A stretch of 33,678 bases of DNA from Pyrinomonadaceae bacterium (GTDB taxonomy: Bacteria > Acidobacteriota > Blastocatellia > Pyrinomonadales > Pyrinomonadaceae), in contig JACMLC010000094.1 in NCBI GenBank assembly GCA_014379795.1, forward strand, positions 1 through 33,678, read 5' to 3'. Below, piece after piece: positions 2,980 through 33,678 of this stretch; positions within the stretch are counted from its first letter, which is position 1, and each line of letters opens with the position of its first letter. The translations under genes were made by a program, and so were the position numbers. The notes under the pieces were generated by a model. That model did not search any database. It was not told the DNA's origin and worked only from the letters and a program-made list of their open reading frames with translations.

Positions 2980-3119
2980 GATTCCCCTCGAAAATGATTG
3001 ATGGAGAACGCAAGCGAGCTGATAGGCAGCCCACTCACGCTCCTCGCTCTAAAGCTTGGGCTCTTTAGACACGGATGTGCGCTTCCAGTCTTTGCGACTG
3101 AAACATTTTCGAAGGGGTT

Positions 3120-3590
3120 TTAGATTAGGAAAACATTGAGGAGGAGATGCCTGCGCGAGAGTGTGCCGGGCGGCGCGTGCTGTCTGGCCTGCACGGGCGG
3201 CGCAAACGAGGTTGCGAACGACGAAAGAAAACCGGATGGCGGCAGCACCGGGACGCCGGCATCACGCTTTGAAAGTTCCGCTACGCGCGTGAAGACCAAA
3301 AGGTTAGCCGGAGTTTCAGGGTTGGTTATGCAATGTGTGCATGGCCCTGTCTGTCCTTCGAATGAGGCTCTTTGCGCCTCTTCTTCGGCATCTGGCGGCT
3401 CAATGGCTTCCGCCTCATCGCTCGCCATCTCTTCATGACACGACGAACCCTCTCTGTGCTGAGCTACGGTTTCGATCCTTTCATGAGCGCGGCGGGCTTG
3501 CTTGTGCGGGCAGAGCGTATCCGCAAACACAACTCCCCAGCCACTCACAAAGAGCAGAGAGATGATAAGGATGAGCAGAACTCTTTTCAT
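3120..3590 (-). CDS. Secreted or membrane-anchored Cys/His-containing protein of unknown function
   Basis: 156-aa ORF. N-terminal hydrophobic signal MKRVLLILIISLLFVSGWGVVFA. Cys/His motifs CPH, SSCHEEM and CTHC, plus an acidic stretch. Same strand as, and between, the cupredoxin and OMF genes. No family recognised. Confidence 0.5.
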   Translation of the reverse strand: MKRVLLILIISLLFVSGWGVVFADTLCPHKQARRAHERIETVAQHREGSSCHEEMASDEAEAIEPPDAEEEAQRASFEGQTGPCTHCITNPETPANLLVFTRVAELSKRDAGVPVLPPSGFLSSFATSFAPPVQARQHAPPGTLSRRHLLLNVFLI

Positions 3591-3709
3591 TGAATCCTAT
3601 TATTCTAAACTATGCGCGCGAGCTAGTCCATGCCTAAACCCGTTTTAGAGTGTGAGAAGCCGGTTCAGGTTGCACTAACACTCTCTTACATCTGAAATCC
3701 CTTTGCCAT

Positions 3710-4087
3710 TTACTGAACAATCAGCTTGCCTCGATACATATTCATCCCGCAGGTGAACTCATACTCTCCAGGCTTCTCCGGCCTAATCTCAACCGGAACC
3801 GTTCTGTCCTGCGGCAGGTGTGCGCGTTTGCCGAAATCCGGCAGTATGACTTCCTCACCGCACGGCGTTGATTCGCGGCGCGTGAAGTTCAAGCGGAGCA
3901 CTTGTCCGGCTTTGGCTGTGATGATGGAAGGCTGGTAGCCTCCCTTGACCGTTACATCAATCTCCTGCACGCCTCGCTCCGAACTGCGCGCGGCCACTGA
4001 TTCGCCCTTCCACAACCAGAAGTACCAGATGATCCAGCCGATGATTCCAAGCCCCACGAGGGTCACGATCACATTTGTCGTATTCAT
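3710..4087 (-). CDS. Small membrane-anchored cupredoxin-like protein
   Basis: 125-aa ORF. One N-terminal TM helix (VIVTLVGLGIIGWIIWYFWLW) followed by a beta-rich domain ending EYEFTCGMNMYRGKLIV. Its ATG overlaps the stop of the upstream ATPase gene (ATGA at 4084-4087), suggesting translational coupling. Confidence 0.7.
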   Translation of the reverse strand: MNTTNVIVTLVGLGIIGWIIWYFWLWKGESVAARSSERGVQEIDVTVKGGYQPSIITAKAGQVLRLNFTRRESTPCGEEVILPDFGKRAHLPQDRTVPVEIRPEKPGEYEFTCGMNMYRGKLIVQ

Positions 4088-12797: not shown

Positions 12798-15700
12798 TCA
12801 ATCCCGGGCCGGAGCAAGCTCCCGTTCTCGCGGATAGTCACGCGATGGCACTTGTGCTGTAGCGCGGCCATACTTCAGGTACAGGGCCGGAATCACGATC
12901 ATGTTGAGGAAAGTAGAAGTGACGATGCCGCCTAAGATCACGACAGCCATCGGCTGCTGAATCTCCTTGCCCGGCTCGCCCGCGCCCCACGCCAGCGGAA
13001 TTAACCCGACGCCCGTGACAATCGCCGTCATCAGGATCGGCGAAAGCCTCTCCATCGAACCCTGCACAATCGCGTCGCGAAACGGGACTCCCTCCTCCTC
13101 CATCAAATGCGTGTAATGCGAGATCAGCATGATGCCGTTGCGTGTGGCGATGCCGAACAGCGTGATGAAGCCGACGAGTGAGGCGATGGAGAGCGTTCCC
13201 CCGGAAAGGAAGACCATCACCACGCCGCCGATCAAAGCCAGCGGCAGGTTCGCCATCACCAGCGCGGCTGAGCGCGCCGATTTCAAAGCGATATAGAGCA
13301 ACAGGAAGATGCCGCCGATAGCGACGATGGAGAGCAGCGTGATGAGGCGCGAGGCTTTCTCCTGCGCCTCGAACTGCCCGCCATACTGTACGAAGTAGCC
13401 TTGCGGCAGTTGGACTTTTGTTCCGATGGCCTCGCGCACATCGTTGATGACGCTGCCCAAATCTCTATCGGCGACGTTTGCCTGAACGATGATGCGGCGC
13501 TGAACGTTCTCGCGGTTGAGGGTGTTCGGGCCTTGATCCACTCTCACTTCGGCGACCTGCCCGATAGGAACGCGCGCGCCCGTCGGCGTGTCAATCAAAG
13601 TGCGCTCGATGCTCTCCACAGATTCGCGCGACGCATCATCGTGGCGCACCAGCACGTCGTAGGTGCGCTGCTCTTCCAGGACCTGCGATGCAACGTGTCC
13701 GTTAAAGGCTGTGTCAACCGTTTCGGCTAAGTCTTCGGCTCTCAATCCGACTGCTGCTGCCGCCTGGCGGTTCATGTTGATTTGGACTTGCGGCACGCCG
13801 ACTTGCGGCTCGACGATCAGATCAACGATGCCGGGAACTCCCGCCATCTGGTCGCGTATCTCGGCAGCTTTAGTGCGTAAGGTCGCAAGGTCGGGTCCGA
13901 AAAGTTTGATGGCGATTTGCGCTCGCGTGCCTGAGAGCAGGTGGTCAATGCGGTGCGAGATGGGCTGGCCGACTTCCGCCTCGACGCCGGGGATGCGCGC
14001 GAGTCGCTGGCGCACGTCTTCCATAAACTCGGCGTGAGAGCGACTCCCCTCTTTCGTCACGACTTCGATCTCGCTGGTGTTGACGCCCGCCGCGTGCTCA
14101 TCCAATTCGGCACGCCCAGTGCGGCGAGTCGTCGAGACGACTTCAGGGACTTCATGCAGGACGGACTCGATGACATTGCCGATGCGGTTTGATTCCTTGA
14201 GGGAGGTGCCCGGCGGCATGTTGGCGTTGATGTTCAGCGTGCCTTCGTTGAACGGGGGCAGGAATTCGCGCCCCATGAACGCGAACAGCAGCATTGCGAC
14301 GAGCAGCATCGCGGCGGACGAAGCGATGATTTTATAAGGATGGCGAAGCGTCCAATTCAAGATTCGCGCGTAGCGCTTCTTCAGCCACGCGACAAGGCGT
14401 GAATCTTTCTCGTCGTGAAGCAGCTTCGAGCGACCGAGCAGGAAGTAGCAGAGCACGGGCGTCACGGTCAGCGCGACGATGAGCGAAGCCGTGATCGAGA
14501 TGATATAGGCAAAGGCGAGCGGCGCGAACATGCGACCTTCAAAGCCGCCCAAAGAGAAGAGCGGCAGGAAGACGATGACGATGATGAGCGTCGCAAAGAG
14601 GATCGAGTTTCTGATCTCGCTCGATGCGCGGAAGATGACATCTATCACGTGAGCGGGCGTCGGGCTGTGAGCGTTCTGCTTCAAACGGCGGAAGACGTTT
14701 TCGACATCTATGATCGCATCGTCCACGAGCGCGCCGATAGCGATGGCGAGGCCGCCCAAGGTCATCGTATTGATCGAAATATTGAAGTAGCTCATCACGA
14801 GAATCGCCGTGATGAGCGAGAGCGGAATCGCGGTCAAAGAGATGAACGTCGTGCGGAAGTTCCACAGGAAGAGAAACAGCACGACCGTCACCATGATGCC
14901 GCCTTCGATGATTGAAGCGCGCACGTTGCCGACAGCGCGATTGATAAAGTCGGATTGCTGGAACGCCTTCGTGTCAATCGTCACGTCCGGCGGCAGCGTC
15001 GCTTTCAAATTGGCGAGCGTCGTCTCAATCTGTTCGGTTACTTCGAGCGTGTTGGCGTTCGGCTGCTTCTGAATCGTGGCGACAACCGCCGGTTGCATGT
15101 TAAAGCTGCCGTCGCCGCGCTTCAGCGCCGCGCCCGCCTGCACCGTCGCCACGTTACTGATGAGAACGGGCACGCCGTCGCGCACGGTGATGACGGAGTT
15201 GGCGAGGTCTTCAGGCGTGTAAACGCGCGCCCGCCCTCGAATCAGGAACTCTTCGTTCGTGCGCTCAAGGAAACCGCCCGCCGCGTTCGCGTTCGAAGCC
15301 GTGACGGCTTCGACAACCTGCTCAAGCGTCAGCCCGTGATCCGCCAGCTTCGCCGGGTCAACGAGCACCTGAAACTGCTTGGTGTCGCCGCCGATAATCA
15401 TCACCTGAGAGACGCCTGTGACTCCAAGCAGGCGCGGGCGCACAGTCCAATCGGCAATCGAGCGCAACTCCATCGGTGAAGTCGTCTTGCTCGTCATCGA
15501 GATCAGCATGATCTCGCCCATCGTCGAAGAGATGGGACCCAAAACGGGCGGCGGAACTCCCGCAGGCAACCGGACTTGTTGCAATTTCTCATTGACAAGC
15601 TGGCGTGCGCGGTAGATGTCTGTGTCGAGGTTGAATTCGACGAAGACGATGGAGATGCCGATGGCCGAATTAGAGCGGACGCGATACACGCCCGCCGTCC

Positions 15701-15923
15701 CGTTCATCGCCGCTTCGATGGGCAACGTGACAAGTGATTCAACTTCCTCCGGCGCAAGACCGTGCGATTCTGTGAGAATCGTGACTGTGGGCGCAGTCAA
15801 ATCTGGGAACACATCAACCGGCGTGCGCAGCGCGACGTATCCGCCGTAGATGAGCAGCGCGACCGCCGCGATGATGACCATCAGCCGGTTACGAAGCGAC
15901 CACTGGATGATTTTATTTAACAT
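12798..15923 (-). CDS. CusA/CzcA-family heavy-metal efflux RND permease
   Basis: 1041-aa ORF. N-terminus MLNKIIQWSLRNRLMV. 12-TM RND layout with two large periplasmic loops. TM4 charged segment GALVDDAIIDVEN, typical of the HME-RND family. Confidence 0.95.
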   Translation of the reverse strand: MLNKIIQWSLRNRLMVIIAAVALLIYGGYVALRTPVDVFPDLTAPTVTILTESHGLAPEEVESLVTLPIEAAMNGTAGVYRVRSNSAIGISIVFVEFNLDTDIYRARQLVNEKLQQVRLPAGVPPPVLGPISSTMGEIMLISMTSKTTSPMELRSIADWTVRPRLLGVTGVSQVMIIGGDTKQFQVLVDPAKLADHGLTLEQVVEAVTASNANAAGGFLERTNEEFLIRGRARVYTPEDLANSVITVRDGVPVLISNVATVQAGAALKRGDGSFNMQPAVVATIQKQPNANTLEVTEQIETTLANLKATLPPDVTIDTKAFQQSDFINRAVGNVRASIIEGGIMVTVVLFLFLWNFRTTFISLTAIPLSLITAILVMSYFNISINTMTLGGLAIAIGALVDDAIIDVENVFRRLKQNAHSPTPAHVIDVIFRASSEIRNSILFATLIIVIVFLPLFSLGGFEGRMFAPLAFAYIISITASLIVALTVTPVLCYFLLGRSKLLHDEKDSRLVAWLKKRYARILNWTLRHPYKIIASSAAMLLVAMLLFAFMGREFLPPFNEGTLNINANMPPGTSLKESNRIGNVIESVLHEVPEVVSTTRRTGRAELDEHAAGVNTSEIEVVTKEGSRSHAEFMEDVRQRLARIPGVEAEVGQPISHRIDHLLSGTRAQIAIKLFGPDLATLRTKAAEIRDQMAGVPGIVDLIVEPQVGVPQVQINMNRQAAAAVGLRAEDLAETVDTAFNGHVASQVLEEQRTYDVLVRHDDASRESVESIERTLIDTPTGARVPIGQVAEVRVDQGPNTLNRENVQRRIIVQANVADRDLGSVINDVREAIGTKVQLPQGYFVQYGGQFEAQEKASRLITLLSIVAIGGIFLLLYIALKSARSAALVMANLPLALIGGVVMVFLSGGTLSIASLVGFITLFGIATRNGIMLISHYTHLMEEEGVPFRDAIVQGSMERLSPILMTAIVTGVGLIPLAWGAGEPGKEIQQPMAVVILGGIVTSTFLNMIVIPALYLKYGRATAQVPSRDYPRERELAPARD

Positions 15924-20868: not shown

Positions 20869-21288
20869 ATGTTAATCGCACTCTTAACACTCTTCTTGTG
20901 GAGCTTTCTCGCCGCCACGGTGCTGCCGCTCAGCTCGGAAGCCCCTCTCATCGTCTACGTGCGCTCCTACCACCAGATAACGATTCCGGTGCTGGTGGCG
21001 ACTGTCGGGAACTACTTTGGCGCATGTACGACCTACTGGCTCGCACGGCGCACGGCTCAGGCTCTTGGCAGAGGACAGGAGGCGGCGAACAGTACGACTC
21101 GAAGCGCCAGGCTCATGCGTCGTTTCGGCCAACCCATCTTACTCCTCTCATGGGTGCCGGTCCTCGGCGACGCGCTTGTCGCCCTTGCCGGCGCGATGAG
21201 AATGCCTTTCGGGGTCTTCTCGCTCTGGATAGCCATCGGCAAGGGGCTTCGCTATCTGGCAGTGGCGTGGGCGGCTTCCGCCGTGTAG
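20869..21288 (+). CDS. YqaA-family (DedA-related) small inner-membrane protein
   Basis: 139-aa ORF. From memory it is collinear with E. coli YqaA: FLAATVLPLSSE..., GNYFG, LLLSWVPVLGD, AIGKGLRYLAVA. Divergent from the blaI-like gene, 48 nt from the palindrome. Confidence 0.8.
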   Translation: MLIALLTLFLWSFLAATVLPLSSEAPLIVYVRSYHQITIPVLVATVGNYFGACTTYWLARRTAQALGRGQEAANSTTRSARLMRRFGQPILLLSWVPVLGDALVALAGAMRMPFGVFSLWIAIGKGLRYLAVAWAASAV

Positions 21289-23248: not shown

Positions 23249-23914
23249 ATGGCATCCATGCAGAAGCGGAAAGACAATTATATCCCGGCACTTTCCTATG
23301 ACGGGTTAACTCCGCTGTACGATTCACTCATCCGCTGGACCACACCTGAGCAGACTTTTAAGCTCCGTCTCATCGAGCAGGCTCGGATCACCAGAAATCA
23401 TCGCGTCCTCGACCTCGGCTGCGGCACGGCGACGCTTACTCTCCTTATCAAGGAAACGCATCCTGAAGCTGCGGTGGTCGGGTTGGACGGCGACCCCAAA
23501 ATTCTTCAAATCGCGGGACGGAAAGCTCTTGCAGCCAGACTAGACATTACTTTCAATCAAGGCATGTCTTATGATTTGCCATACCCTGATGCCCCCTTCG
23601 ACCGCATACTCTCAAGCCTTGTCATTCATCATTTGACGCATGAAAACAAAATCCGCACGCTTAACGAAGTGCATCGGGTTCTGAGCGACGGCGGAGAGAT
23701 GCACATCGCAGACTTCGGCAAACCGCATAATGCGTTAATGCTCGCGGCATCACTGCCTTGGCGGATGTTCGACGGCATGGAAACGACTTCAGACAACGTG
23801 CAGGGCGCGCTGCCGGAGATGATGCGACGCGCAGGGTTTATAGAGGTCCACGAATCAGCCCGTTACATGACGCTGTTCGGCACACTTTCGCTGCATGTGG
23901 CGCGAAAGCCTTAA
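23249..23914 (+). CDS. Class I SAM-dependent methyltransferase
   Basis: 221-aa ORF. Motif I VLDLGCGTATLT, post-I VVGLDGD, then FDRILSSLVIHHL and GGEMHIADF. Confidence 0.85.
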   Translation: MASMQKRKDNYIPALSYDGLTPLYDSLIRWTTPEQTFKLRLIEQARITRNHRVLDLGCGTATLTLLIKETHPEAAVVGLDGDPKILQIAGRKALAARLDITFNQGMSYDLPYPDAPFDRILSSLVIHHLTHENKIRTLNEVHRVLSDGGEMHIADFGKPHNALMLAASLPWRMFDGMETTSDNVQGALPEMMRRAGFIEVHESARYMTLFGTLSLHVARKP

Positions 23915-24211: not shown

Positions 24212-24505
24212 TTAATGCATCACCCACTGGGCATTGGAAACAAGACATACGCCCCCACGTTTTCTCAGTAAAGGACGAATGGCTTCGACAATCTCTTCGA
24301 CTTGCTCCGGCGGGCACGTCGTTAACAAGTAACTGTTCTTGAAAACGTCGGTTAGATCGTCGCCGGATTGGACGCCGCGCTCGCCCTTACCGGTGACATC
24401 TTTGATGACGGTATATCCCGAAACTCCATGAGCCTCTAACAGCGCAATGACCGCTCGCATTTCCAGCGCGTCCGTGATGATTTCGATTCTTTTGATGACT
24501 TGCAT
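24212..24505 (-). CDS. P-II-like signalling protein (SbtB-like)
   Basis: The ORF track starts at 24517, but the ATG at 24505 follows GGAGA and sits just after the upstream stop (TAG at 24510-24508). The sequence IKRIEIITDALEMRAVIALLEAHGVSGYTVIKDVTGKGERGVQSG is collinear with the P-II/SbtB pattern as I recall it. Confidence 0.75.
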   Translation of the reverse strand: MQVIKRIEIITDALEMRAVIALLEAHGVSGYTVIKDVTGKGERGVQSGDDLTDVFKNSYLLTTCPPEQVEEIVEAIRPLLRKRGGVCLVSNAQWVMH

Positions 24506-24507
24506 TT

Positions 24508-24636
24508 CTATCTCCACAGGATGTTAATCACGCTCATGTAGAGCGGAAGTCCAACGATGATGTTGAAGGGGAAAGTCAGCGCTAGAGCCATCGTCACATA
24601 CAGGCCAGGGTTCGCTTCGGGAATCGCCAGCCGCAT
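24508..24636 (-). pseudogene. 3-prime fragment (last ~42 codons) of a membrane permease gene, probably SbtA/DUF897-type, truncated at the IS remnant
   Basis: My own translation: ...[39 protein letters not shown], then a stop. Hydrophobic C-terminal TM. The coding frame is lost where IS256-transposase similarity starts on the opposite strand. The family is assigned only from its pairing with the P-II gene. Confidence 0.45.
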
Positions 24637-24925
24637 CACCCCGTTCTTCGCGTATCCTGAGGAGATTCGGAGAGTGATCTACACGACCAATGCGATTGAA
24701 TCAGTGAATATGTCTTTACGGAAGAGCATTAAGAATCTCGGGTCGTTCCCGACCGATGAGGCGACGATAAAGTTGCTCTACCTGGCGTTACAGAATGTCA
24801 GCCGGAAGTCGACGATGCCGATCAAAGAATGGAAGGCGGCGCTGAATCGCTTTGCGATTCTGTTCGAGGACCGGATGCCTGTCCTCTAGTGATGATCATT
24901 TACACAAACCTCTTGACACGCCCTC
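24637..24925 (+). mobile_element. IS256-family insertion sequence remnant (C-terminal ~85 codons of the transposase plus the right terminal repeat)
   Basis: The translation [80 protein letters not shown] matches the conserved IS256 transposase C-terminus (YTTNAIES motif). The N-terminal ~300 codons are absent. The downstream end ATTTACACAAACCTCTTGACACGCCC (about 24898-24923) resembles the IS256 right inverted repeat (TTTTACACAA...). Boundaries are approximate. Confidence 0.8.
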
Positions 24926-25109
24926 ACGCTCTGACCTTTTCATTTAAGATGCGTTCGCACTACCCACTACCGAAAATATGTTGCCGCGCTGCCGCAGAGT
25001 TTGTTATCCTCCCCGCATCGCTTCAGTCTTCACGGTGCGTCTCTACGCGACTCTTCAGATTCGCGCCGACTCAGCATTTCTATTTCCTTCACTCTGTGAG
25101 GTATCCTCA

Positions 25110-28058
25110 ATGAGCTATCTGGACACTCCGCGCCTCGTCTTCTCCGGGCGATTTCAGGCTGACCCCTCGACCATCAACAACGACCCGCATCACTTCGACA
25201 CGGGAACCTTTCGCTCTAATGACGAACTGTGGGGGCTAGGCGTGGCAAACGGGTGGTGGAACCCGAACGGGTCGGGCGCGTGGCGCTTCCGCGACTGCGT
25301 CGTGCGTCAAGTCGTCTACGGCGACGGCACCGTGTGCGACGACCCGAACATAGACCCGGTCATCGGCGCGCTCGTCAACGACTCGAACATCCGCGTCGAA
25401 GGCAAGCTTGTTGACCTCGACTCGGAGCAGCAGATGGTCTCTCAGATTTGGGGCTTCCAAGTGGCGCTCAGCCCGTCGCCCACCAACCCCAGTCAGCCGG
25501 TCTTCGGCTTCCGCAGCGACTTCCAAATGGCTCCCTTCGCAGACATCTGGGTGCGCGTCCCGTCGGGGCAGCCCGACTCGTTCTTCGGCGCTTTCTACCA
25601 GAGCATCCTGACGAACATCGAGTGGGTCGGAGCGGGTAACGACACCTGGACGCAAAACTCGCGCTACCTCCGCGAGCTGGCGGGCGCTGGCGGGCCTCCG
25701 CCGCAGCTCAGCATCCGCTTCAACGTGGACGCCTACAACATGGCTGACCCGACTGCGCCGGAGTTCACGTTCGGGCGCGTCGTCGGCGCCATCGGGCCGT
25801 ACGACTCGGGCGAGCCGGTTCACTTTGTCGCTGGCCGGTCGCTCCAGCCCCCCATACCCCCGCCTAACCCGTCGCTCAACACCGCCTACGCGCAGGTCGA
25901 AGGCGACGTACTCACGCTCGACATGGGCAACAGCCTCCCCGACCAGGCTTTGGGCGGCCCGACCATTAACCTCGGGACGCTCTACGCCGCCATACTGCCG
26001 CCCCCGCCCGCCCAACCGGTGATACTTGGCTCCATCCCTTACACAGACAACGACTGGTATGCGAAGACGGCTGGCATCATCTCCTACACGCTCGACCCCA
26101 AGCAGGCGGAGCTGGCCGCCAGCGCTCAGCTCGGCGTCGTTCAGTCTGGCCCCAACGGTATTGCGCCGATGCTCTCCGAGGCCCCGAACGGCCTGTGGCT
26201 GCGCGCCGACCAGTTCGTCTTCAGGCTCAACCCCGGCGAGAAGGGCCAGCAAGACGAAAGCAACGTGACGACCTTTTACGCCACCACCTTCGGCCAGCCC
26301 ACCGCAGGCCAACAGATCAGCCTCGCCTACGACTCGACCATCATGCAGGGGTTCGTCCAGCAAGACCCCACGCTGGTGCCCGGCCCGCTCCCGGGACAGC
26401 CCGAAACCGTACTCAGCCTGTCTGTCCCGCCGCCGTCCTGCGAGGACTCAACCGGCGAGACGACGCTCCCCCTGCCGGCCACGATCACAACCGGAAGTGA
26501 CGGTAAGGTCACCGTGGCGCTCAAGGCGACAGACCCCGGCAACCCGCGCGGCTACATCGACGGGCAGATTTACGGTGTCACCTACGGCCCCGGCCCGGAG
26601 CCGCCGCCCGTCGGCGCTATAGGGAACTCGAGCCAGATTCTCAACGCGCTTGTCTTCTCCGGCTACGACGCGCCGGACGAGCCTGACTGGATGATAGACG
26701 TGCAGCCCATCTTCGAGCAGTACGCCAACCTCTACCCGGTGATGCGCCCCATCGTCGATCTGGCCGACTACGCCAGCGTCGTCAGCCGGACAGCGGCGCT
26801 CTTCAACGTCTTCAGCAGGTCGCTCGACGATCCCAATTACATGCCCGTCACGCGCGATCTCTCGAAGCCGAAGCGGGATATGATCCTGAACTGGCTCAAA
26901 GGGTCGCCGCCGCTCTACATGAAGCTCGACTCGAAAGAAGATTTGATGGTCGCGCTGCAACAGGCCATTGAGCTGGAGCACTCGACCATTCCGCCTTACC
27001 TCACCGCGCTCTACAGCATCAAGCCCGGAGCCAACGAGGAAGTGGCGGAACTCATCCGCAGCGTCGTCATCGAGGAGATGCTGCACATGGCGCTCGTCTG
27101 CAACATCGTCGTCTCCCTCGGCGGAAGCCCGCAGATAGGCAAACCCGGCTTCGTGCCGAACTACCCCGGCCCGCTGCCCGGCGGCCTGCTCGGCGGTCTG
27201 ACCGTGCGCCTGCGCCGTTGCTCCATCGAGCAGATACGCGACGTGTTCATGTTCATCGAGAAGCCTGAAGTGACCATGGACCCGGCAGAGCGCGCCGCTC
27301 GCCGCGCCGGCTCGAAAAAGTCTCAGGAGTCCGTCATCGAGAGAATCCACAACGAGGTTAAAGAAGCGCTGACCGGCTCGGACGACGCGCGCCGGAAGCA
27401 GCTCGCCGAGCCGCTGGACATGCGCGGCTACCCCGGCGGGCCGAGAACGGCCAACCCGTACACCATCGGCTGGTTCTATGACCAGATTAAAGAGTCCCTG
27501 ACGAACTTGAGTGGCGCAAGCCAGATCTCCTTCGGCCACGCAGACCAACAGGTCTCGGACTGGACTGGGACAGGAAAGCTCTACGTCATCAACAGCCTTG
27601 AGGACGCAATCCGTGCCATTGACGAGATCAAGTCGCAGGGCGAAGGCGCTTCGCCGCGCGATCCTGACGATGGGGACAGCGAGCTGGCGCACTATTACAA
27701 GTTCTCCGAGATTGTTCACGGTCGCCGCATCATCGTCGGAAAGGACGGGTACTCCTACACCGGCGGGCACATCCCTTTCGACCCCAACGGCGTCTACGCG
27801 ATGACGGACGACCCGGAGGCGGCGCTGTTCCCGGACGGCTCGCGCGCGCTCATCCTCTCCAAGCAGTTCGCGGAAACCTATCAGGCGCTTCTGAACGGCC
27901 TGCACCGCACCTTCAACGGCGAGCCGGACTACCTCGGGCAGGCCGTCGGCATCATGTTCTCGCTCAGCGTCATCGCGCGCAACCTGATGCAGACGCCTTC
28001 CGGGCTGGGCGACGGCACGACCGCCGGCCCGTCCTTCCAACTCCCCGACCCGCTGTGA
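25110..28058 (+). CDS. VioB/StaD/RebD-family protein (iminophenylpyruvate dimer synthase-like; C-terminal ferritin-like domain), 982 aa
   Basis: The ORF track starts at 24978, but the ATG at 25110 follows GAGG (8-nt gap). From memory it is collinear with C. violaceum VioB: MSYLDTPRLVFSGRF..NNDP vs MSILDFPRIHFRG..NRDP; YMPVTRDLSKPK vs YMPSTRELSAPK; AIELEHSTIPPYLTALYSI vs VDLELSVMLQYLYAAYSI; VIEEMLHMALVCN vs IAHEEMIHYLVVN; SQGEG vs DQGEG. Similar length (VioB is ~1000 aa). Confidence 0.85.
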   Translation: MSYLDTPRLVFSGRFQADPSTINNDPHHFDTGTFRSNDELWGLGVANGWWNPNGSGAWRFRDCVVRQVVYGDGTVCDDPNIDPVIGALVNDSNIRVEGKLVDLDSEQQMVSQIWGFQVALSPSPTNPSQPVFGFRSDFQMAPFADIWVRVPSGQPDSFFGAFYQSILTNIEWVGAGNDTWTQNSRYLRELAGAGGPPPQLSIRFNVDAYNMADPTAPEFTFGRVVGAIGPYDSGEPVHFVAGRSLQPPIPPPNPSLNTAYAQVEGDVLTLDMGNSLPDQALGGPTINLGTLYAAILPPPPAQPVILGSIPYTDNDWYAKTAGIISYTLDPKQAELAASAQLGVVQSGPNGIAPMLSEAPNGLWLRADQFVFRLNPGEKGQQDESNVTTFYATTFGQPTAGQQISLAYDSTIMQGFVQQDPTLVPGPLPGQPETVLSLSVPPPSCEDSTGETTLPLPATITTGSDGKVTVALKATDPGNPRGYIDGQIYGVTYGPGPEPPPVGAIGNSSQILNALVFSGYDAPDEPDWMIDVQPIFEQYANLYPVMRPIVDLADYASVVSRTAALFNVFSRSLDDPNYMPVTRDLSKPKRDMILNWLKGSPPLYMKLDSKEDLMVALQQAIELEHSTIPPYLTALYSIKPGANEEVAELIRSVVIEEMLHMALVCNIVVSLGGSPQIGKPGFVPNYPGPLPGGLLGGLTVRLRRCSIEQIRDVFMFIEKPEVTMDPAERAARRAGSKKSQESVIERIHNEVKEALTGSDDARRKQLAEPLDMRGYPGGPRTANPYTIGWFYDQIKESLTNLSGASQISFGHADQQVSDWTGTGKLYVINSLEDAIRAIDEIKSQGEGASPRDPDDGDSELAHYYKFSEIVHGRRIIVGKDGYSYTGGHIPFDPNGVYAMTDDPEAALFPDGSRALILSKQFAETYQALLNGLHRTFNGEPDYLGQAVGIMFSLSVIARNLMQTPSGLGDGTTAGPSFQLPDPL

Positions 28059-28091
28059 AAAATTAGCCCCTTTCTCTTTAACCGATCCGAC

Positions 28092-28120
28092 CCCGCCCGC
28101 GTGCTCAAAGCGCGGGCGGG
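28092..28120 (+). other. GC-rich hairpin between the VioB-like gene and the downstream small gene
   Basis: CCCGCCCGCG (28092-28101), loop TGCTCAAAG, CGCGGGCGGG (28111-28120): a 10-bp perfect stem. No U-tract, so it is not a canonical intrinsic terminator. Confidence 0.4.
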
Positions 28121-28156
28121 ACACCGGCAATCAGAACATGATAGGAGAGTAAGAGC

Positions 28157-28627
28157 ATGCGCAGACTGACCTACGCGCTTGAGTTCGTCCGCAAAGCCGC
28201 AGCGCCCGAGGCAACGGCAGAGCCGATAGTCGCTTCGAGCGTCCGTATCACCACAACCATGAACCCTAAAGGCGTGCAGGGAGACATCGAACAGCTTGGC
28301 GATTTCGAGACGGCGACACTGGAAGTCAAATTGATCCCGACCACGCTACCCGGAACTTTTACGGAGACGGGGAAGCTCACCTTCGGCGGGCCGGGCAGTA
28401 ATAACAATCTTTACTTTAGCTCCATCGGCCTCGGCTACGTGGCCCCTTACAAATGCCCCGAGGAGCCTTACACGGCGGGCGTCGTGTCGTGGGTGATAGT
28501 CTGGGGGGAGGGCTTCTTTGAAGGGGCGTCCGGCATCATCACTTCCAACTTCCTCGTAGACAAAACTAAGCCCAACGACACCGGAGAATTGATTGCTTAC
28601 CACTTCGGCGTGATTTACCTGCCATAG
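28157..28627 (+). CDS. Small cytoplasmic protein, possibly an allene-oxide-cyclase/dirigent-like beta-barrel
   Basis: 156-aa ORF. Strong SD AGGAGAG 7 nt upstream of the ATG. No signal peptide. Beta-rich, with the motif VWGEGFFEGASGIITSNFLVD, which resembles the G-x-G-x-F-x-G-A-x-G pattern of AOC/dirigent-like barrels. The fold assignment is tentative. Confidence 0.6.
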   Translation: MRRLTYALEFVRKAAAPEATAEPIVASSVRITTTMNPKGVQGDIEQLGDFETATLEVKLIPTTLPGTFTETGKLTFGGPGSNNNLYFSSIGLGYVAPYKCPEEPYTAGVVSWVIVWGEGFFEGASGIITSNFLVDKTKPNDTGELIAYHFGVIYLP

Positions 28628-28700
28628 CTCGCACACGATGAGTTATGCGATTTATGCCCTTTTGATTAGCTGTATCCTGACTGTTGATGAACAAGACACC

Positions 28701-28769
28701 TCACGCAAAGGCGCAAAGACGCAAAGTAAGTTTGAAAAGTTTACTTTGCGTCTTTGCGCCTTTGCGTGA
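28701..28769. repeat. Perfect 29-bp inverted repeat (hairpin) built from three 8-nt direct repeats, between convergent operons
   Basis: Left arm TCACGCAAAGGCGCAAAGACGCAAAGTAA (28701-28729), 11-nt loop, right arm TTACTTTGCGTCTTTGCGCCTTTGCGTGA (28741-28769). The arms contain (A/G)CGCAAAG three times. No flanking T-run. Confidence 0.85.
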
Positions 28770-28832
28770 ACACTTCGTCGCTACATATCGGCAGGGTGCA
28801 GCTAATCTCAAATCGCAATAATTTTTTAGAGA

Positions 28833-29249
28833 CTATTGTGGTAACGACGCGGCGAGTTTCATCATGGCTTGCTCTTCGGCCTCGGTGATTTCGCCTTCCC
28901 TGCTCCAAGCTATTCCGACGACGGCGCGCACCGCGCCCGCATCATCAAGCACAGGCAATGCGACTGCTGCCTGTGCGTCAACGGCCTTTGCGCCCGGCTT
29001 GATGTTGCCCGTGTCATCTGTTTGCAGGTTGCAGGTCTGCACCGGCGACTTTTGCACCTGAGCCATCCCAGCCATCCCTTTGCCGTGAGGCACGCGCGCC
29101 ACGATGGCGACCACTGCGGGCGGGATGTTATGCGCCGCCGTCAGGAAGAGGTCTTCGCCGCGCTGCACATGCACCGTGCCTGCGCTCGCGTCGTGCTGTG
29201 CGATGAACAACTCCAGCCACTTCTGCTGTGCCTGATTCTGCTCGTACAT
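28833..29249 (-). CDS. Single-domain GAF-like protein
   Basis: 138-aa ORF. Pattern AGTVHV...L.L.AAHNIPP....V..VPHGKGMAGMA......V...NLQTD......P.A......A..LPV.......GVVGIAW, typical of small stand-alone GAF proteins. Its ATG lies 2 nt after the stop of the upstream gene. Confidence 0.6.
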   Translation of the reverse strand: MYEQNQAQQKWLELFIAQHDASAGTVHVQRGEDLFLTAAHNIPPAVVAIVARVPHGKGMAGMAQVQKSPVQTCNLQTDDTGNIKPGAKAVDAQAAVALPVLDDAGAVRAVVGIAWSREGEITEAEEQAMMKLAASLPQ

Positions 29250-29251
29250 TT

Positions 29252-30157
29252 CTATTTCTCCATGAGCGGGATGGACAGATAACCGGAGATGTAGCAGCAG
29301 AGGGCGTCGCCGTCAAAGCCGCCCATCCAGAAGCTGAGCGGCCAGGTCGTTTTTTCGTCCGCGCCGATTTTGTTCTCGTGGACTGTGCCGTTGATGTCCA
29401 CGCTCCAGCCGTAGCCTAGCAGCGTCAACTGGTGCGCGCGGCGATCAATAGGTTCGCCCTGCGACAATTCCCACCAGCGGTGGAGGATGTTTAGCTGGCT
29501 GATGCGCGTTTCGAGCGCGGCGCGCTCAACCGGGTTTCGTGTGCGCTTGAGCAGTTCTTCCAGATTCCTTTGCCGTATGCGCCGGTTGTTGATGCAGGAA
29601 TCGTTAGAGGCATCGGGCAAGCCCGTCGCTTTGGCGACTTCGACGGAGTTGTCAGTTAAGCCCTGCGGTTGCCGACGCTCAAGCATTTCGGAGGTAGCCT
29701 GCATGATGGGCAGGTCGGGGTTGCTCGGATCAAGAAAGTCTTCGCGGTCGAGCACGAGCGTGCCGCGCTTTTTTCGCACCTGAACGCGCAAAGGGTCTAT
29801 GGCGTAAAGGTCGTTGCGGATGAGGATGCCGTTGCGCTCGGTGAGTTGGGCTTTGACGAAGGAGACGCGCGCGTCCAGGTATTCCGGCGCTTCACTGTAA
29901 CGGAGCGTCTCGTCGTCGTACCACTTCGCCTGCCGAACCGTCACGCCGACGCGTGGGCCAATGTCGTTTTTCCCGTAGCCGAAACGGCGCTCACAGACGC
30001 CCTCTTCGTCGGGTTGCAGGTGGAGAAGGTTGTCAAAGTCCGGCTCTCCGGCCAGCGCGAAGGTGTAGCCGCTGAGGCCGCGCGGCTCGTCCGTTGGATC
30101 TGGATCGGTAGCCATCCGCATCTGAAAGTAACCTTCGAACGAAAGATAAAGCCACAT
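29252..30157 (-). CDS. Hypothetical protein resembling the N-terminal module of VioB-family proteins
   Basis: 301-aa ORF. Its start lies 5 nt after the ferritin-like gene stop. Three collinear motif anchors to the N-terminus of the 982-aa protein: LYLSFEGYFQ...TDPDP vs RLVFSGRFQ...NNDP; VTVRQAKWYDDET vs CVVRQVVYGDGT; WSVDINGT...CCYISGYLSIP vs IRFNVDAY...FGRVVGAIGP. Confidence 0.7.
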   Translation of the reverse strand: MWLYLSFEGYFQMRMATDPDPTDEPRGLSGYTFALAGEPDFDNLLHLQPDEEGVCERRFGYGKNDIGPRVGVTVRQAKWYDDETLRYSEAPEYLDARVSFVKAQLTERNGILIRNDLYAIDPLRVQVRKKRGTLVLDREDFLDPSNPDLPIMQATSEMLERRQPQGLTDNSVEVAKATGLPDASNDSCINNRRIRQRNLEELLKRTRNPVERAALETRISQLNILHRWWELSQGEPIDRRAHQLTLLGYGWSVDINGTVHENKIGADEKTTWPLSFWMGGFDGDALCCYISGYLSIPLMEK

Positions 30158-30162
30158 GATTT

Positions 30163-31557
30163 TTATTCACCCCTTCCGACGTTTTTCCAGTTCGCGCGCC
30201 AGTCGTCAGACAGCCGCCGCATGTTCTCTGCCATATAGTGCAGCCGCTTGACGATCTTATCGTCCGCAGGTCGTAGCTCGTAAATCCAGAGATTGTCGAA
30301 CTGCCATGTGAGAATGTCGAAGTATTTCTGAAACTCGCTCCAAGTGTCTTCCGGCTGCGGCAGAAGCAGCAAGTCTTTCGAGAGTTCGAACCCCGGCCCG
30401 GCGTTACCTTTCTTATCTTTGAAGGCCGGGAGCAAGGTGAGAATTTCGCTTAAGGGGCGGATGAACATCGTCATCAGGGGAAAGAAAATGGCGTTCATCA
30501 GCGCGACGGTTTGCGCCTTTGTCTTCTTGTTGCTGCCGTAGAGAAACAGCATCATCAGGAGCATCAATTCGTAAGCGTGATTGAACAGGATTGCTATCTC
30601 GCGCGTTTCGGGGCGCGTGATGAGGTTCACTTCGTCGGGCGCGGTGATGTCTGGGTGCATGCTCGTCAGAGGGTTACGCACGACGGGGCGTGCGGCATCG
30701 AAGCCGCCCATTTGACTGAGCATCGTTGTGAAGATGCAATAGTGCGTGTGCTCTAAGTATTCGGGCGGCGCGAGGACGCCCTCACCCTGCTCGACAATTT
30801 CGACAATCGCTTCAATCGCGCTGTGCAGGTCACAGACCTGTATGAGGTCTAAGCCATACTGGCTGAGGTCATCCATCGAGCCTTCGCCATATGGCGTTCC
30901 CGGCCCGCCCCACATCTCCGCGTTAAAGTCGCCGATGAATAAATTCTTCTCGCCGATTCTCTCCGTTACAATGATGAAGCCCCAAGCGAGACTCATGTAG
31001 AGGTCTTGCACAGAGGTGAAGCCGATTTCGGACAGGAGCACCTGCCTGCCTCCCGTCGCGCCGGACGCCTGCGCCGCGCTGTGCGTGAAAACTTGCGGCG
31101 CAAGCAACTGCGCGCGGATGTCCTCACGGCTGGCGATGCCGCGCGTCTTGCAGAAGTCCGGGCCGGGAGCTGGATGCGGGGCTTCAAACTCCTGAAAGCG
31201 TTTGATAGTGTCTTTGCTGAAGCGCGTCAGTTCGGATTTGATGCCGAGCTTCCCGTAGACCTCTTTGCGCTGCGGGAAGTTTGGACGCTGGAAGTTAGGC
31301 GTGCCGCCGATGGCCGAGAGAAGGTTGAGCACAAGTCCCATGTGCTCCATCTCCTGCCGCGCGACGAGCGTCATCAGCCCACCCCAGCCGCGCGTCTTTT
31401 CCAGTTGCACCTCGCTGAGTCCCTCATCGGTTGAGCGCTTCATCGTGTAGGCGGCGAACAGATACTGGCACATCAAATTATGCTCAAGCTCTGCGGCCAG
31501 ATGCAGCGTGTTGATTAAATCTTCGCGAGTGGTGAGTTCTATCGTCAATGGTTTCAC
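30163..31557 (-). CDS. Stand-alone ferritin-like domain protein (VioB/RebD C-terminal-half type)
   Basis: 464-aa ORF. HLAAELEHNLMCQYLFAAYTM and VARQEMEHMGLVLNLLSAIGG match the ferritin-like helices of the 982-aa protein and of VioB. VEQGEGVLAPPEYLEHTHY...RPVVRNPL parallels VioB TDQGEGG..SPHYEHSHF...LPALRNPVL. Confidence 0.85.
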   Translation of the reverse strand: MKPLTIELTTREDLINTLHLAAELEHNLMCQYLFAAYTMKRSTDEGLSEVQLEKTRGWGGLMTLVARQEMEHMGLVLNLLSAIGGTPNFQRPNFPQRKEVYGKLGIKSELTRFSKDTIKRFQEFEAPHPAPGPDFCKTRGIASREDIRAQLLAPQVFTHSAAQASGATGGRQVLLSEIGFTSVQDLYMSLAWGFIIVTERIGEKNLFIGDFNAEMWGGPGTPYGEGSMDDLSQYGLDLIQVCDLHSAIEAIVEIVEQGEGVLAPPEYLEHTHYCIFTTMLSQMGGFDAARPVVRNPLTSMHPDITAPDEVNLITRPETREIAILFNHAYELMLLMMLFLYGSNKKTKAQTVALMNAIFFPLMTMFIRPLSEILTLLPAFKDKKGNAGPGFELSKDLLLLPQPEDTWSEFQKYFDILTWQFDNLWIYELRPADDKIVKRLHYMAENMRRLSDDWRANWKNVGRGE

Positions 31558-31576: not shown

Positions 31577-32224
31577 TTAGGAGCGCGCACGTCGTCTGGC
31601 GAGATAAGGTTCGACCGTGCGGCCAATCAGCCAGAAGCATCCGGCGACGAGAACCACGAGTCCGAACACCAGCGCGGCATTCTCGAATTTAGCCGCCGCC
31701 GCTCCCGTCAGCGCGTAGAGCAAGGCCGGAGGCAGCGAGCCAGTCACAGCAGCCAGCGCGGCTCGTCCCGGACTCATGCCGGAGGCCCCTGCCATGATTG
31801 CCACTGTCTCTGCTAATAAAGGCACTGGACGCGTGACGATAATCGCCAGCGTTCCCCAACGTTTGAGCAAACCGTCTGCGCGCTCACGCTCTTCCGGAGT
31901 TAATAGACGCTCTAACAATCTTCCTCCACGCCTGCCGAGCCAGAAGCCGAGCATGGCTGCTCCAACGCTTCCCGTAAGTGACAACAGCGTTCCACCCACG
32001 ACGCCAAAAAGCGCGCCATGCGCCACCATGATAAGGCTTGAAGGAACGGGCAACACTACGTCTGCGAGGAGCAGGCCCACGCCAAGCATTGCTGCCCACG
32101 GGCCGCCGTGATTCAACGACGGAGTCGGGTCAACCAGCAGCGGAACGCCTAGAGCCTTGACCAGAAAACAGAGGCTGAGGAAGAAGGCGAACATGCCGCA
32201 CATGATTGAGAAATATCGCTTCAT
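31577..32224 (-). CDS. DedA/TVP38-TMEM64 (VTT-domain) family membrane protein
   Basis: The ORF track starts at 32278, overlapping the receptor gene. The ATG at 32224 gives MKRYFSIMCGMFAFFLSL. VTT-type pattern: ADVVLPVPSSLIMVAHGALFG...GFWLGRRGG...RWGTLAIIVTRPVPLLAETVAIMAGASGM. Confidence 0.8.
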   Translation of the reverse strand: MKRYFSIMCGMFAFFLSLCFLVKALGVPLLVDPTPSLNHGGPWAAMLGVGLLLADVVLPVPSSLIMVAHGALFGVVGGTLLSLTGSVGAAMLGFWLGRRGGRLLERLLTPEERERADGLLKRWGTLAIIVTRPVPLLAETVAIMAGASGMSPGRAALAAVTGSLPPALLYALTGAAAAKFENAALVFGLVVLVAGCFWLIGRTVEPYLARRRARS

Positions 32225-32231
32225 CCTTCTT

Positions 32232-33678
32232 TCAACGTCGAAGCAAGTCGAAAAAATCCATCGTCGCTCCGAAGACAAAGGAGCGTCCCGGAGCGGGCGC
32301 AGTTTGAAAAGGCTCGAAGTAGAGCGTGTCTGTCAGATTATCCAAGCCAAAGGTCAGTGACACTCTGTATGTCTCCCGGCGATAGTTGTAAACGGCTCGC
32401 AGAGAATGTTTCGTGAATGGACTGAGGCTGGCAAAACTTCCATATTGAGTAGAGATGGCCGTCGCCAGCTCAAGCGGGTCAACGCGCGTCACGCGAGCTT
32501 GATGGCGAATTTCGTATTGGGCCAGCCAGACGCCCTTACGGTCACTGTAACGCGCGCCAAAGTGTGCGCCGAAAGGAGAGATGCCGGATAAAGGAGCATC
32601 GCTGGCAGAGCCGCGCAGGCGCAAGGGGGTGTCATCGCGGTTATAAAATGTCTCGATGAGCGTCAGCGCATTTTGCTCCGGCGTTAAGTCAGAGCCTTTG
32701 AGCCACCCCATCGTGCCATAGGGAGTAAGACTCCCTGCTCTGCCCAGGTGAAAGCTTATTTCGTAAGCGGCTTCAACTCCCTGAATCCGCGCGCGCGCAG
32801 TGTTGCCGCGCTGCACATAGAGCACGCCGTGAAACGGGAAGAACGGAGAGATAGGCTCAAGCCCCTGCGCCGGATTAGCAGGCACAAAGAGCGTCTCGGA
32901 AAATTCGTTGCGAATAAAATCCTTCAGATGATTACGAAAGTAGCCAACCGAACCAGACCAACGCTGACGCTCGATTTTGATGCCGAACTCAAAATTGCTG
33001 CCTCTCTCCGGCTTCAAAGTAGTGTTCGGAACCAGCAACACGCTGAAAGTCGGATCGCCAAAATTTCGCAGGATGTAACGCTCCGTCACGCCGGGTTCGC
33101 GGTAGCTACTGCCCCAACGAAAATACGGATTGAGGCTGCCCGGAAGACGCAGCACGATTCCCAGATTACCCGTGACGCTCGTTTTACTCGTGCTGATACC
33201 GCTCGCGCCGTTGATGAGTGGAATGATGCCGCTCGCGCCGCCGATGTTGACCGCGCCGGGGTTAGCTGTAAGTGAGGCAAAAGACGCATTCAGAATTGCT
33301 GTCTCCGTGCTGAGCGGAAAGCCCTGTGTAATCTTCGCTTCTGTCTGCCAGTTATCAACGCGCAAGCCGCCGGTTAGACGCAGCCATGTGCGCGGCTCAT
33401 ATTCCAGTAGATTGAACCAGCTCAGGTTTCTGTAAACAGAATCAGGAGTGGTCGCTCTGTCGCTGATAAAATTTCGCGGCGCGAGTGTGACGGGCGTAAA
33501 GTCGAAACGCGAAAACTCATCTCTTGATGAGTCGCGCAAGTAACCGATGCCCGTCGTCAGCCATGCGCTCTTAAATGGACTGAGCGTCGCCTGTGCCTCC
33601 GCGCCGTAAGTCGTCACGGAGTTTTTGCCGTCTGTAAAGTTTGCCGGAGTGAAAACGGATGGATTCCCTGTTAAGACC
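32232..33678 (-). CDS. TonB-dependent outer membrane receptor, C-terminal beta-barrel part; the N-terminus lies beyond the window end
   Basis: The frame is open to the window edge: the GTG at 33617 in the ORF track is internal, and upstream codons read ...VLTGNPSVFTPANFTDGKNS. Barrel motifs: GVEAAYEISF, LTFGLDNLTDTLYFEPF, GRSFVFGATMDF. Confidence 0.9.
   Translation of the reverse strand, partial: VLTGNPSVFTPANFTDGKNSVTTYGAEAQATLSPFKSAWLTTGIGYLRDSSRDEFSRFDFTPVTLAPRNFISDRATTPDSVYRNLSWFNLLEYEPRTWLRLTGGLRVDNWQTEAKITQGFPLSTETAILNASFASLTANPGAVNIGGASGIIPLINGASGISTSKTSVTGNLGIVLRLPGSLNPYFRWGSSYREPGVTERYILRNFGDPTFSVLLVPNTTLKPERGSNFEFGIKIERQRWSGSVGYFRNHLKDFIRNEFSETLFVPANPAQGLEPISPFFPFHGVLYVQRGNTARARIQGVEAAYEISFHLGRAGSLTPYGTMGWLKGSDLTPEQNALTLIETFYNRDDTPLRLRGSASDAPLSGISPFGAHFGARYSDRKGVWLAQYEIRHQARVTRVDPLELATAISTQYGSFASLSPFTKHSLRAVYNYRRETYRVSLTFGLDNLTDTLYFEPFQTAPAPGRSFVFGATMDFFDLLRR

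Follow-up and report, generated by a model that had tools for sequence, protein, structure and literature searches.

The window analysed here is a 33,678-nucleotide (nt) stretch of contig JACMLC010000094.1 from Pyrinomonadaceae bacterium (GenBank assembly GCA_014379795.1), and its gene of interest, at 25110-28058 on the plus strand, encodes a protein of 982 amino acids (aa) that belongs to the VioB superfamily. VioB, StaD and RebD are O2- or H2O2-dependent oxidases that couple two enamine or imine molecules; to our knowledge they are the only characterised members of their fold, and we know of no solved structure and no settled mechanism for them. An earlier reading of the DNA (the original prediction) had taken the gene for an orphan relative of these enzymes that was acquired horizontally. 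Here the gene is described as a member, in all likelihood, of an uncharacterised sister family of the VioB-type oxidases, whose copy in the window probably replaced a resident ortholog and forms part of a recurrent set of genes.

The gene and its relation to VioB, StaD and RebD

The gene and the parts of its product are as follows.

25110-28058, plus strand: gene for the 982-aa VioB-superfamily protein, from an uncharacterised '~900-aa ferritin-like protein' family; probable xenolog, G+C content at third codon positions (GC3) 0.85
25110-26669, plus strand: predicted all-beta N-terminal region (aa 1-520) with several beta-sandwich domains common to VioB (AlphaFold, hhalign)
26934-27989, plus strand: ferritin-like helical domain (aa 609-960, with PF12902 at 616-869; Pfam, Foldseek, residue conservation)
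27279-27407, plus strand: window-specific 43-aa insertion (aa 724-766) in the ferritin-like domain (alignment gap, low model confidence)
28092-28120, plus strand: G+C-rich 11-bp hairpin without a T tract, directly after the stop codon (RNA fold)

The open reading frame (ORF) is intact and runs from an ATG at 25110, with GAGG in front of it, to a stop at 28058. The start was placed there rather than at an upstream in-frame ATG (24978) because all homologs begin with MSYL. No signal peptide was recognisable at the N-terminus on inspection, and a promoter scan of 24500-29300 gave no sigma-70-like site. The RNA fold of 28059-28156 has an energy of -34.8 kcal/mol (z -3.3).

The sole Pfam domain of the protein is PF12902 (Ferritin-like; aa 616-869, E 6.7e-60), with a score of 203 bits against a cutoff of 22.3. 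For a direct comparison, a sequence that we take to be a C. violaceum-type VioB, validated by a full-length match of 1924 bits to the VioB equivalog model TIGR04492 (NCBIfam, iminophenyl-pyruvate dimer synthase), was aligned with the protein by BLASTP. Three collinear high-scoring segment pairs were obtained, which cover the N-terminus (1-277 of the 982-aa protein, 1-316 of VioB; E 3e-6), the linker with the first ferritin helices (523-678 and 500-699; E 3e-11) and the C-terminus (831-982 and 792-937; E 0.005). An hhalign comparison of 32 family members (alignment A1) with 18 VioB/StaD/RebD-like proteins (alignment A2) gave a probability of 100% and an E value of 1.6e-48 over 833 columns at 21% identity, extending from residue 1 through the C-terminal PSG..G.TAGP motif. 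The blocks named in the original prediction, namely the N-terminal MS.LD.PR..F.G, YMP.TRDLS.PK, the ferritin-like helices and QGEG, are all found in these alignments. By sequence comparison, the 982-aa protein is thus a true but remote full-length homolog of VioB, StaD and RebD, as predicted. It shares with them the length class, the domain order (beta N-terminal region, linker, PF12902 domain) and, within the PF12902 domain, the glutamate of helix A, EEMxH, QGEG and the last ExxH. A small beta-protein gene lies directly downstream in both cases (VioE there, p156 here), which is a likeness by analogy.

A similarity search with the protein returned 853 matches, including more than 100 full-length sequences with identities of 47-66%, and at least 416 relatives were confirmed in a metagenome scan. 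The hosts include Acidobacteriota, Myxococcaceae, Undibacterium, Chitinophaga, Chromobacterium, Verrucomicrobiales, Anaerolineae and others, and the database names go no further than 'ferritin-like protein'. A literature search found no paper on this family, on the function of PF12902, or on a ferritin-like or VioB-like gene in ebo clusters.

Collinear full-length homology and the shared EEMxH, QGEG, ExxH and PSG..G.TAGP motifs might be read as the signature of an orphan but genuine bisindole synthase (forming the dimer of indole-3-pyruvic acid imine or chromopyrrolic acid) whose Trp oxidase partner lies elsewhere in the genome. The protein scores only 22.5 bits against TIGR04492, however, where the cutoff is 1250, and the match covers no more than aa 531-638. 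In a neighbour-joining tree of the 32 family and 18 VioB/StaD/RebD-like sequences each group is monophyletic, with identities of 47-86% within the family, 33-85% within the VioB group and 19-27% between them (21-24% for the window protein against VioB-type enzymes), so that the protein does not cluster inside the known bisindole synthases, a placement that the original prediction had named for checking. The family is about 100 aa shorter and lacks GGEHH (VioB 767-770) and RRSRLMN..D (894-904), which are invariant in the VioB clade; the window protein reads FGHA..DQQV and YLGQAVGIMFSL at these positions, and neither string is conserved as such in the family. VioB types in violacein and indolocarbazole gene clusters are accompanied by a flavin adenine dinucleotide (FAD)-dependent L-Trp oxidase and by VioE or a StaP-type P450 (PMC10851217). 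No Trp oxidase (VioA/RebO/StaO), VioE or StaP-type P450 gene was found among the window ORFs by Pfam scans, which also bears out the predicted absence of a partner FAD amino-acid oxidase from the window, or in eight annotated homolog loci; instead of these genes or VioC/D, the family is accompanied by genes for GAF, DedA, TonB-dependent receptor and ferritin-like plus p301 proteins and by ebo genes. Furthermore, the chromosome of Chromobacterium sp. IIBBL 290-4 encodes a member of this family (P0112) in addition to a true VioB (P0124). Because model score, clade, invariant motifs and gene context all fail, the protein is not regarded as a bisindole synthase, a role that we consider most improbable, and its assignment to an uncharacterised sister family of the VioB-type oxidases is made with high confidence. 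The Chromobacterium family gene (locus L006, CP100128.1 657829-676549) adjoins an AsnC regulator and the hppD-hmgA-fahA-maiA homogentisate (tyrosine catabolism) operon.

The AlphaFold model of the protein has a predicted local distance difference test (pLDDT) score of 80.8 and a predicted template modelling (pTM) score of 0.74. Between the beta region and the helical domain it shows a helical linker (aa 527-600), which carries YMPVTRDLS. When the full model was submitted to Foldseek, only the helical domain was matched, by 3hl1 (E 7.5e-8, template modelling (TM) score 0.72); the beta region gave weak FN3-, Ig-like and integrin-type matches only, which we take as generic beta-sandwich similarity. 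PDB sequence searches with the 982-aa protein likewise returned only 3hl1 and bacterioferritins, and a search with VioB returned no homologous solved structure, in agreement with a 2021 review (PMC9705886). The sole solved match, 3hl1, is CC_0557 of Caulobacter vibrioides, a function-unknown protein from structural genomics that shares the PF12902 fold (phmmer E 1e-7). It differs in being a single-domain protein of 289-317 aa without the 600-aa N-terminal region, and in having LELW in helix A where the window protein has LEHS.

Invariant in the 32 family sequences are E621, E623, H624, E656, H659, Q843, E845 and H861, and E655, E839 and E858 are at least 90% conserved. E621/E623, E656xxH659, E839/E845 and E858xxH861 sit on predicted helices, and together these residues appear to match the E / ExxH / E / ExxH pattern of ferritin-like di-iron proteins, with one extra histidine. 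The VioB group has LEL[A/S] where the family has H624 (ELEH). VioB, StaD and RebD have been described as heme proteins with heme b (PMC9705886; PMC10851217). The insertion at aa 724-766 falls at alignment columns where 80% or more of the other 31 family sequences have a gap, and pLDDT falls below 50 at aa 734-740 and 756-780.

Composition and origin of the copy

Three features bear on how the gene came to its present place, in addition to the gene itself.

24632-24918, plus strand: IS256-family 3' remnant of 0.29 kb, comprising the last ~85 transposase codons (ORF 24557-24889) and about 30 nt
25236-26363, minus strand: shadow ORF of 375 aa in the codon-aligned antisense frame; not a gene
26448-28130, minus strand: shadow ORF of 560 aa in the codon-aligned antisense frame; not a gene

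The original prediction inferred horizontal acquisition from a raised G+C content, especially at third codon positions, from two long antisense ORFs and from a truncated IS256 element just upstream, and each of these was observed. GC3 of the gene is 0.852, against 0.57-0.76 in the 27 other ORFs of the window, and it is evenly raised over the whole length: in nine chunks of 100 codons the values are 0.78-0.88, whereas 75 chunks from other window genes have 0.673±0.077 (Mann-Whitney, p = 1e-6). The distance in relative synonymous codon usage to the rest of the window is also greatest for this gene. The two antisense ORFs are the longest overlapping ORFs of the window, and they exist because TTA, CTA and TCA are nearly absent as sense codons: only 2 of 983 codons (CTA at 25236 and TCA at 26448), or 0.20 per 100, compared with 0.9-2.8 per 100 in other genes. 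They are shadows of the codon bias of the gene, not genes themselves. The ORF at 24557-24889 matches positions 318-373 of the 379 in the Pfam Transposase_mut profile, blastn similarity to IS256-family transposase genes is confined to 24632-24918, and the remnant ends about 190 nt before the start codon; the upstream element does not amount to a complete Transposase_mut gene with terminal inverted repeats. A 14-nt direct repeat, GCATTTCTAT[C/T]TCC, at 24502-24515 and 25074-25087 flanks the IS256 remnant together with the region upstream of the gene and may be due to chance.

The comparison with related loci (labelled L, with single proteins labelled P) refines the prediction to the replacement of a resident ortholog. 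In L009 and L011, which share part of the gene set of the window, the neighbours of the gene are closely related to those in the window: protein identities are 91% for the GAF protein (L009), 86-88% for p301 and 87-91% for fer464, and the DNA is 85-88% identical. The 982-aa protein, on the other hand, is only about 61-62% identical to its counterparts (69% at the DNA level), whereas the L009 and L011 proteins are 82% identical to each other, with neighbours at 88-89%. Because the flanks are 86-91% identical and the gene only 61%, 25110-28058 is interpreted as a replacement of the resident ortholog. At about 28830, where the GAF gene ends, there is a jump in DNA identity to L009. On the left, the ABM gene that precedes the large gene in L009 and L011 is absent from the window and the IS256 remnant stands in its place; tblastn upstream of 25110 found no remnant of an ABM gene.

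One might argue instead that the high GC3 of a native gene reflects translational selection or a gene-specific mutation bias without any transfer, given that GC1 and GC2 are ordinary and only synonymous sites deviate. In seven other loci, however, the family gene has a GC3 within or near the range of its neighbours, and the discordant identities and the exchange of the ABM gene for an IS remnant also speak against it; we regard this explanation as very improbable. The copy is therefore probably a xenolog, and we hold this with good confidence. On the simplest reading, the resident ABM gene and ortholog gave way to a segment from a higher-GC donor, whose left boundary is the IS remnant and whose right boundary lies between 28058 and 28830. 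The closest known relative (L010/P0003, 66% identity) lies in a locus of 70% GC. A search of a plasmid collection gave no close match to either half of the window, and hence no sign that the region belongs to a known plasmid or island. The window is a clean case of xenologous replacement in a conserved locus, seen both in GC3 and in discordant identity.

The gene p156, directly downstream, was originally predicted to have been acquired as a pair with the large gene and may have arrived with it. Its GC3 is 0.72, like that of resident genes, and L009 and L011 lack it, but the more distant loci L091 and L092 have it in the corresponding position, with 58-60% identity, compared with 75-78% for the GAF protein.

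Conserved neighbourhood, ebo association and candidate function

Downstream of the large gene, the window contains the following features.

28157-28627, plus strand: p156, a 156-aa protein, predicted all-beta, of a rare family; recurrent partner downstream of genes with a VioB-like N-terminal region
28701-28769, no strand: perfect 29-nt inverted repeat (33-bp hairpin, z -10) between the convergent p156 and GAF genes
28833-29249, minus strand: single-domain GAF_2 protein of 138 aa (Pfam); commonest immediate neighbour of family members
29252-30157, minus strand: p301, a 301-aa partner of the standalone ferritin-like protein (homolog search, fusions)
30163-31557, minus strand: fer464, a 464-aa standalone PF12902 protein (Pfam E 5e-31)
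31577-32278, minus strand: DedA/VTT-domain membrane protein (Pfam VTT_dom); recurrent neighbour
32232-33678, minus strand: C-terminal part of a TonB-dependent receptor, frame open to the window end (Pfam, NCBIfam)

Gene contexts were compared in eight annotated contigs and in 79 metagenome loci, the latter by our own ORF extraction, phmmer and BLAST clustering. The locus tally covers 89 loci, 58 of them with a flank of 3 kb or more on a side, and over the 89 loci the neighbours were counted as follows.

ebo genes: 13 loci (8 with three or more)
TonB-dependent receptor: 10 loci
GAF: 9 loci
DedA: 8 loci
ABM/VOC-like upstream gene: 8 loci
p301 with fer464: 3 loci
p156: 1 locus

Contrary to the original prediction, the gene is not an orphan but part of a recurrent set, which continues with minus-strand genes as far as the window end. 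L009 has the layout of the window, with the large gene on the plus strand followed by convergent genes for GAF, 304-aa and ferritin-like proteins; L011 and the P0009 contig have the same pair of 301-aa-type and ferritin-like genes without GAF. In L008 and L010, DedA and a TonB-dependent receptor come after the large gene; these are also the last two minus-strand genes of the window, and the receptor of L008 is 60% identical to that of the window. The best NCBIfam match of the window receptor is a heme receptor model, at a sub-threshold 109 bits (cutoff 317). DedA proteins, a family of lipid and polyprenyl-phosphate transporters, are encoded beside the large gene in L008, L010, L023, L039, L074, L078, L082 and L086. 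GAF homologs adjoin it in nine loci, in addition to L091 and L092, and lie immediately downstream in L018, L022, L025 and L033. An identity of the GAF protein as a free methionine-(R)-sulfoxide reductase (fRMsr) was rejected on inspection, the protein having a single Cys. An ABM-domain gene lies directly upstream of the family-type gene in L009, the P0009 contig and L091. The inverted repeat at 28701-28769 is unique in the window and falls inside the interval in which identity to L009 is lost.

The p156 protein matches no Pfam or NCBIfam model and has nine homologs, all nameless. That it is a recurrent partner, in line with the pairing of the two genes in the original prediction, is borne out by four of four other contexts, in each of which its gene directly follows a gene with a VioB-like N-terminal region: in L077 a two-ORF version of the large gene, and in L090, L091 and L092 a gene for a 630-667-aa protein equal to residues 1-600 and without the ferritin-like domain. 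L091 and L092 then carry GAF, and L091 also p301. The p156 model is all-beta at a low confidence (pLDDT 62), and its top Foldseek matches are dirigent proteins, at a non-significant level (E 0.3-3, TM 0.38-0.42). In being a small all-beta protein encoded beside an oxidase that is expected to yield a reactive intermediate, p156 resembles the VioE-type 'catalytic chaperones'; it has sequence similarity neither to VioE nor to dirigent proteins.

Among the minus-strand genes, fer464 is paralogous to the C-terminal domain of the large protein (hhalign match with aa 600-979 of the family, E 1e-18) and scores 80 bits against the VioB model, more than the large protein itself. Its partner p301 has 364 representative homologs and no Pfam family. 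It is fused C-terminally to a PF12902 domain in P0254, P0311, P0339 and P0350, and because such fusions exist, fer464 and p301 are considered a functional unit. The order in the fusions, PF12902 and then p301, is the reverse of the VioB domain order. A relation of p301 to a detached VioB N-terminal region (~250 residues) was collinear but not significant in hhalign (E 0.04 against the family, with the N-termini aligned, and E 0.03 against VioB 257-290). PDB sequence searches with p156, the p301 profile and GAF gave nothing useful.

In a distant subclade (L077 9797-12915, L045, L074, L078, L082, L086) the large gene consists of two overlapping ORFs in different frames, split into the N-terminal region and the ferritin-like domain, and L090 (3374-5377), L091 (3173-5068) and L092 (1881-3770) encode the N-terminal ~630 aa only, followed by a secreted ~620-aa protein with kelch-like GG repeats. 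These split and N-terminal-only versions indicate that the two halves can exist as separate polypeptides. L009 also encodes, at 2453-5931, a third PF12902 protein (537 aa), just upstream of MbnB/TglH/ChrH-family (DUF692) and HvfC_N genes; the latter pair, a kind known from the modification of methanobactin-like peptides, lies 2 kb from the family gene.

In at least 13 of the 58 loci with sufficient flank, ebo genes lie within 10 kb of the family gene. Pfam checks place the family gene of L001 between EboF/EboB and EboD-E-C-A-GAF, and that of L089 directly after TatD, DHQS-like, TIM-barrel, phosphodiesterase and UbiA genes on the same strand. Family members and the GAF partner are found within or abutting complete ebo clusters in L001/L002, L017, L042, L053, L089 and others. 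The ebo-linked loci belong to both the close (~55% identity) and the distant (~36-40%) subclade, and four of them (L074, L086, L001, L017) also hold DedA, GAF or fer464 with p301. Thallusin, the product to which ebo genes have been linked, is an algal morphogen. According to a 2026 preprint (bioRxiv 10.64898/2026.05.21.724671), it is a metal-chelating meroterpenoid whose ebo-encoded synthesis starts from a cyclitol and L-aspartate. The preprint places ebo clusters in about 2.7% of its ~124,000 representative genomes and states that no enzyme has been assigned to the oxidative rearrangement that turns saccharoquinoline into thallusin.

Our favoured explanation, to which we assign a probability of roughly 0.55, is that a xenologous protein of VioB architecture, within an ebo-associated gene set, acts as an iron-dependent oxidase of an ebo-type aromatic metallophore or a related small molecule. 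The ferritin-like domain would hold the iron centre, either at a carboxylate/histidine site formed by E621/E623 (with H624), E656-x-x-H659, E839/E845 and E858-x-x-H861, or as heme in the manner of VioB. With O2 or H2O2 as oxidant, this centre would act on an electron-rich small molecule, aromatic or enamine in kind, through radical coupling, hydroxylation or ring opening, and the beta region and the linker would form the substrate site. The most probable class of substrate would be an ebo-type hydroxyquinoline-carboxylate metallophore or a compound imported via the adjacent TonB receptor, although an ebo-type or imported metallophore as the actual substrate is a tentative proposal, distinctly less secure than the oxidase as a whole. 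Where present, p156 may capture or steer a reactive product, by analogy with VioE and VioB, and DedA, the TonB receptor and the ligand-binding GAF protein would fit the traffic and sensing of an amphiphilic chelator, e.g., the ebo-made farnesylated hydroxyquinoline carboxylates.

A more far-reaching version holds that the family supplies, in the lineages that have it, the missing oxidative enzyme of ebo-type pathways, acting in O2-dependent ring opening or in post-uptake metal release, with p156 as a VioE- or dirigent-like chaperone; we consider it unlikely. The candidate ring opening would lead from saccharoquinoline-type trihydroxyquinolines to thallusin-type pyridine tricarboxylates, and the alternative candidate step would be the oxidative release of metal from such chelators after TonB-dependent uptake. 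The specific step from saccharoquinoline to thallusin is slightly less probable still. The likeness to the pathway of eboA-F and thallusin/saccharoquinoline lies in the embedding of family loci and in a pathway without an assigned oxidative ring-opening enzyme; unlike the six ebo genes, the family is tied to it by guilt by association only.

Several observations weigh against the favoured explanation. Pfam scans found no ebo gene in the 33.7-kb window, and the flanks sequenced for its closest relatives, L009 and L011, have none either. Many members of the family occur singly among unrelated neighbours (L003, L006, L007), and the locus counts derive from stop-to-stop ORFs and BLAST clustering on contigs that are mostly short-flanked. 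The metal site is read from residue patterns, while no ligand is known for the heme b proteins VioB, StaD and RebD, and the dirigent-like fold of p156 is drawn from the low-confidence model and non-significant matches given above. The comparative genomics of the thallusin preprint did not flag the family, and because the family is absent from reports on thallusin producers, it cannot be a universal step of that pathway. The text and supplement of the preprint mention no ferritin-like, VioB, GAF, DedA or TonB genes, and neither does the earlier ebo literature (Yurchenko 2016; Klicki 2018).

The members without nearby ebo genes would be accounted for if the protein were a VioB-superfamily oxidase of an ebo-unrelated substrate, e.g., another amino-acid-derived imine or enol that is converted into a pigment or pyrrole-type product, and if the ebo, TonB and DedA links were lineage-specific clustering. 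In five fungal genomes PF12902 ferritin-like genes lie beside genes for LodA-type quinoprotein amino-acid oxidases (PMC4417212), a pairing that echoes the logic of VioA and VioB, and the Chromobacterium copy adjoins the homogentisate pathway. The frequency of ebo genes near family members, 13 of 58 loci from both subclades against ~2.7% of genomes, speaks against mere clustering, as does the sharing of loci between ebo and GAF, DedA or fer464/p301 (L001, L017, L074, L086). An ebo-unrelated substrate is possible but clearly less probable than the favoured explanation.

A non-enzymatic role is a further alternative, with the ferritin-like protein handling or storing iron or heme for TonB-dependent uptake and the ABM neighbour as an IsdG-like heme oxygenase. 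The fold, the heme receptor model as best match of the TonB receptors, the ABM-domain genes upstream in three loci and an extracytoplasmic function (ECF) sigma/FecR/TonB set downstream in Chitinophaga would all suit such a role. The sole characterised homologs are catalysts, however; iron storage offers no role for the 520-aa beta region, the conserved YMPVTRDLS linker and p156; the link to ebo, a biosynthetic cluster, would be left unexplained; and the receptor matches are far under the family cutoffs. We therefore regard iron or heme handling as improbable.

The use of the VioB scaffold would extend well beyond bisindole antibiotics, given a large and phylogenetically broad sister family that differs in ligand signature and in partners. 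Its embedding in ebo loci gives a testable candidate for the oxidative rearrangement in thallusin biosynthesis and helps to define the accessory genes of the enigmatic ebo operon. If the family did supply the missing ebo oxidase, VioB-type chemistry would reach from bisindole pigments to metallophore and morphogen metabolism.

Remainder of the window

Positions 1-22870 form a metal (copper/silver-type) resistance island that has no counterpart in L009 and L011. It contains two outer-membrane factor genes, a CusA-like resistance-nodulation-division (RND) pump (12798-15923) with a membrane-fusion protein, a P-type ATPase with a YHS domain (4084-6393), a cupredoxin, two MerR regulators, a BlaI/BlaR1-like pair and YtkA-like and HupE/UreJ_2 genes. 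Because the left 23 kb are unrelated to L009 and L011, the junction region is regarded as a mosaic. Between the island and the IS remnant lie genes for a class I S-adenosylmethionine (SAM) methyltransferase (23249-23914, plus strand) and a small P-II-like protein (24212-24517, minus strand). In L001, L011 and the P0009 contig, methyltransferase genes likewise lie within a few kb of the family gene, with weak similarity (36-42 bits). A second DedA/VTT gene, at 20869-21288 on the plus strand, lies outside the conserved neighbourhood, to which only the gene at 31577-32278 on the minus strand belongs.

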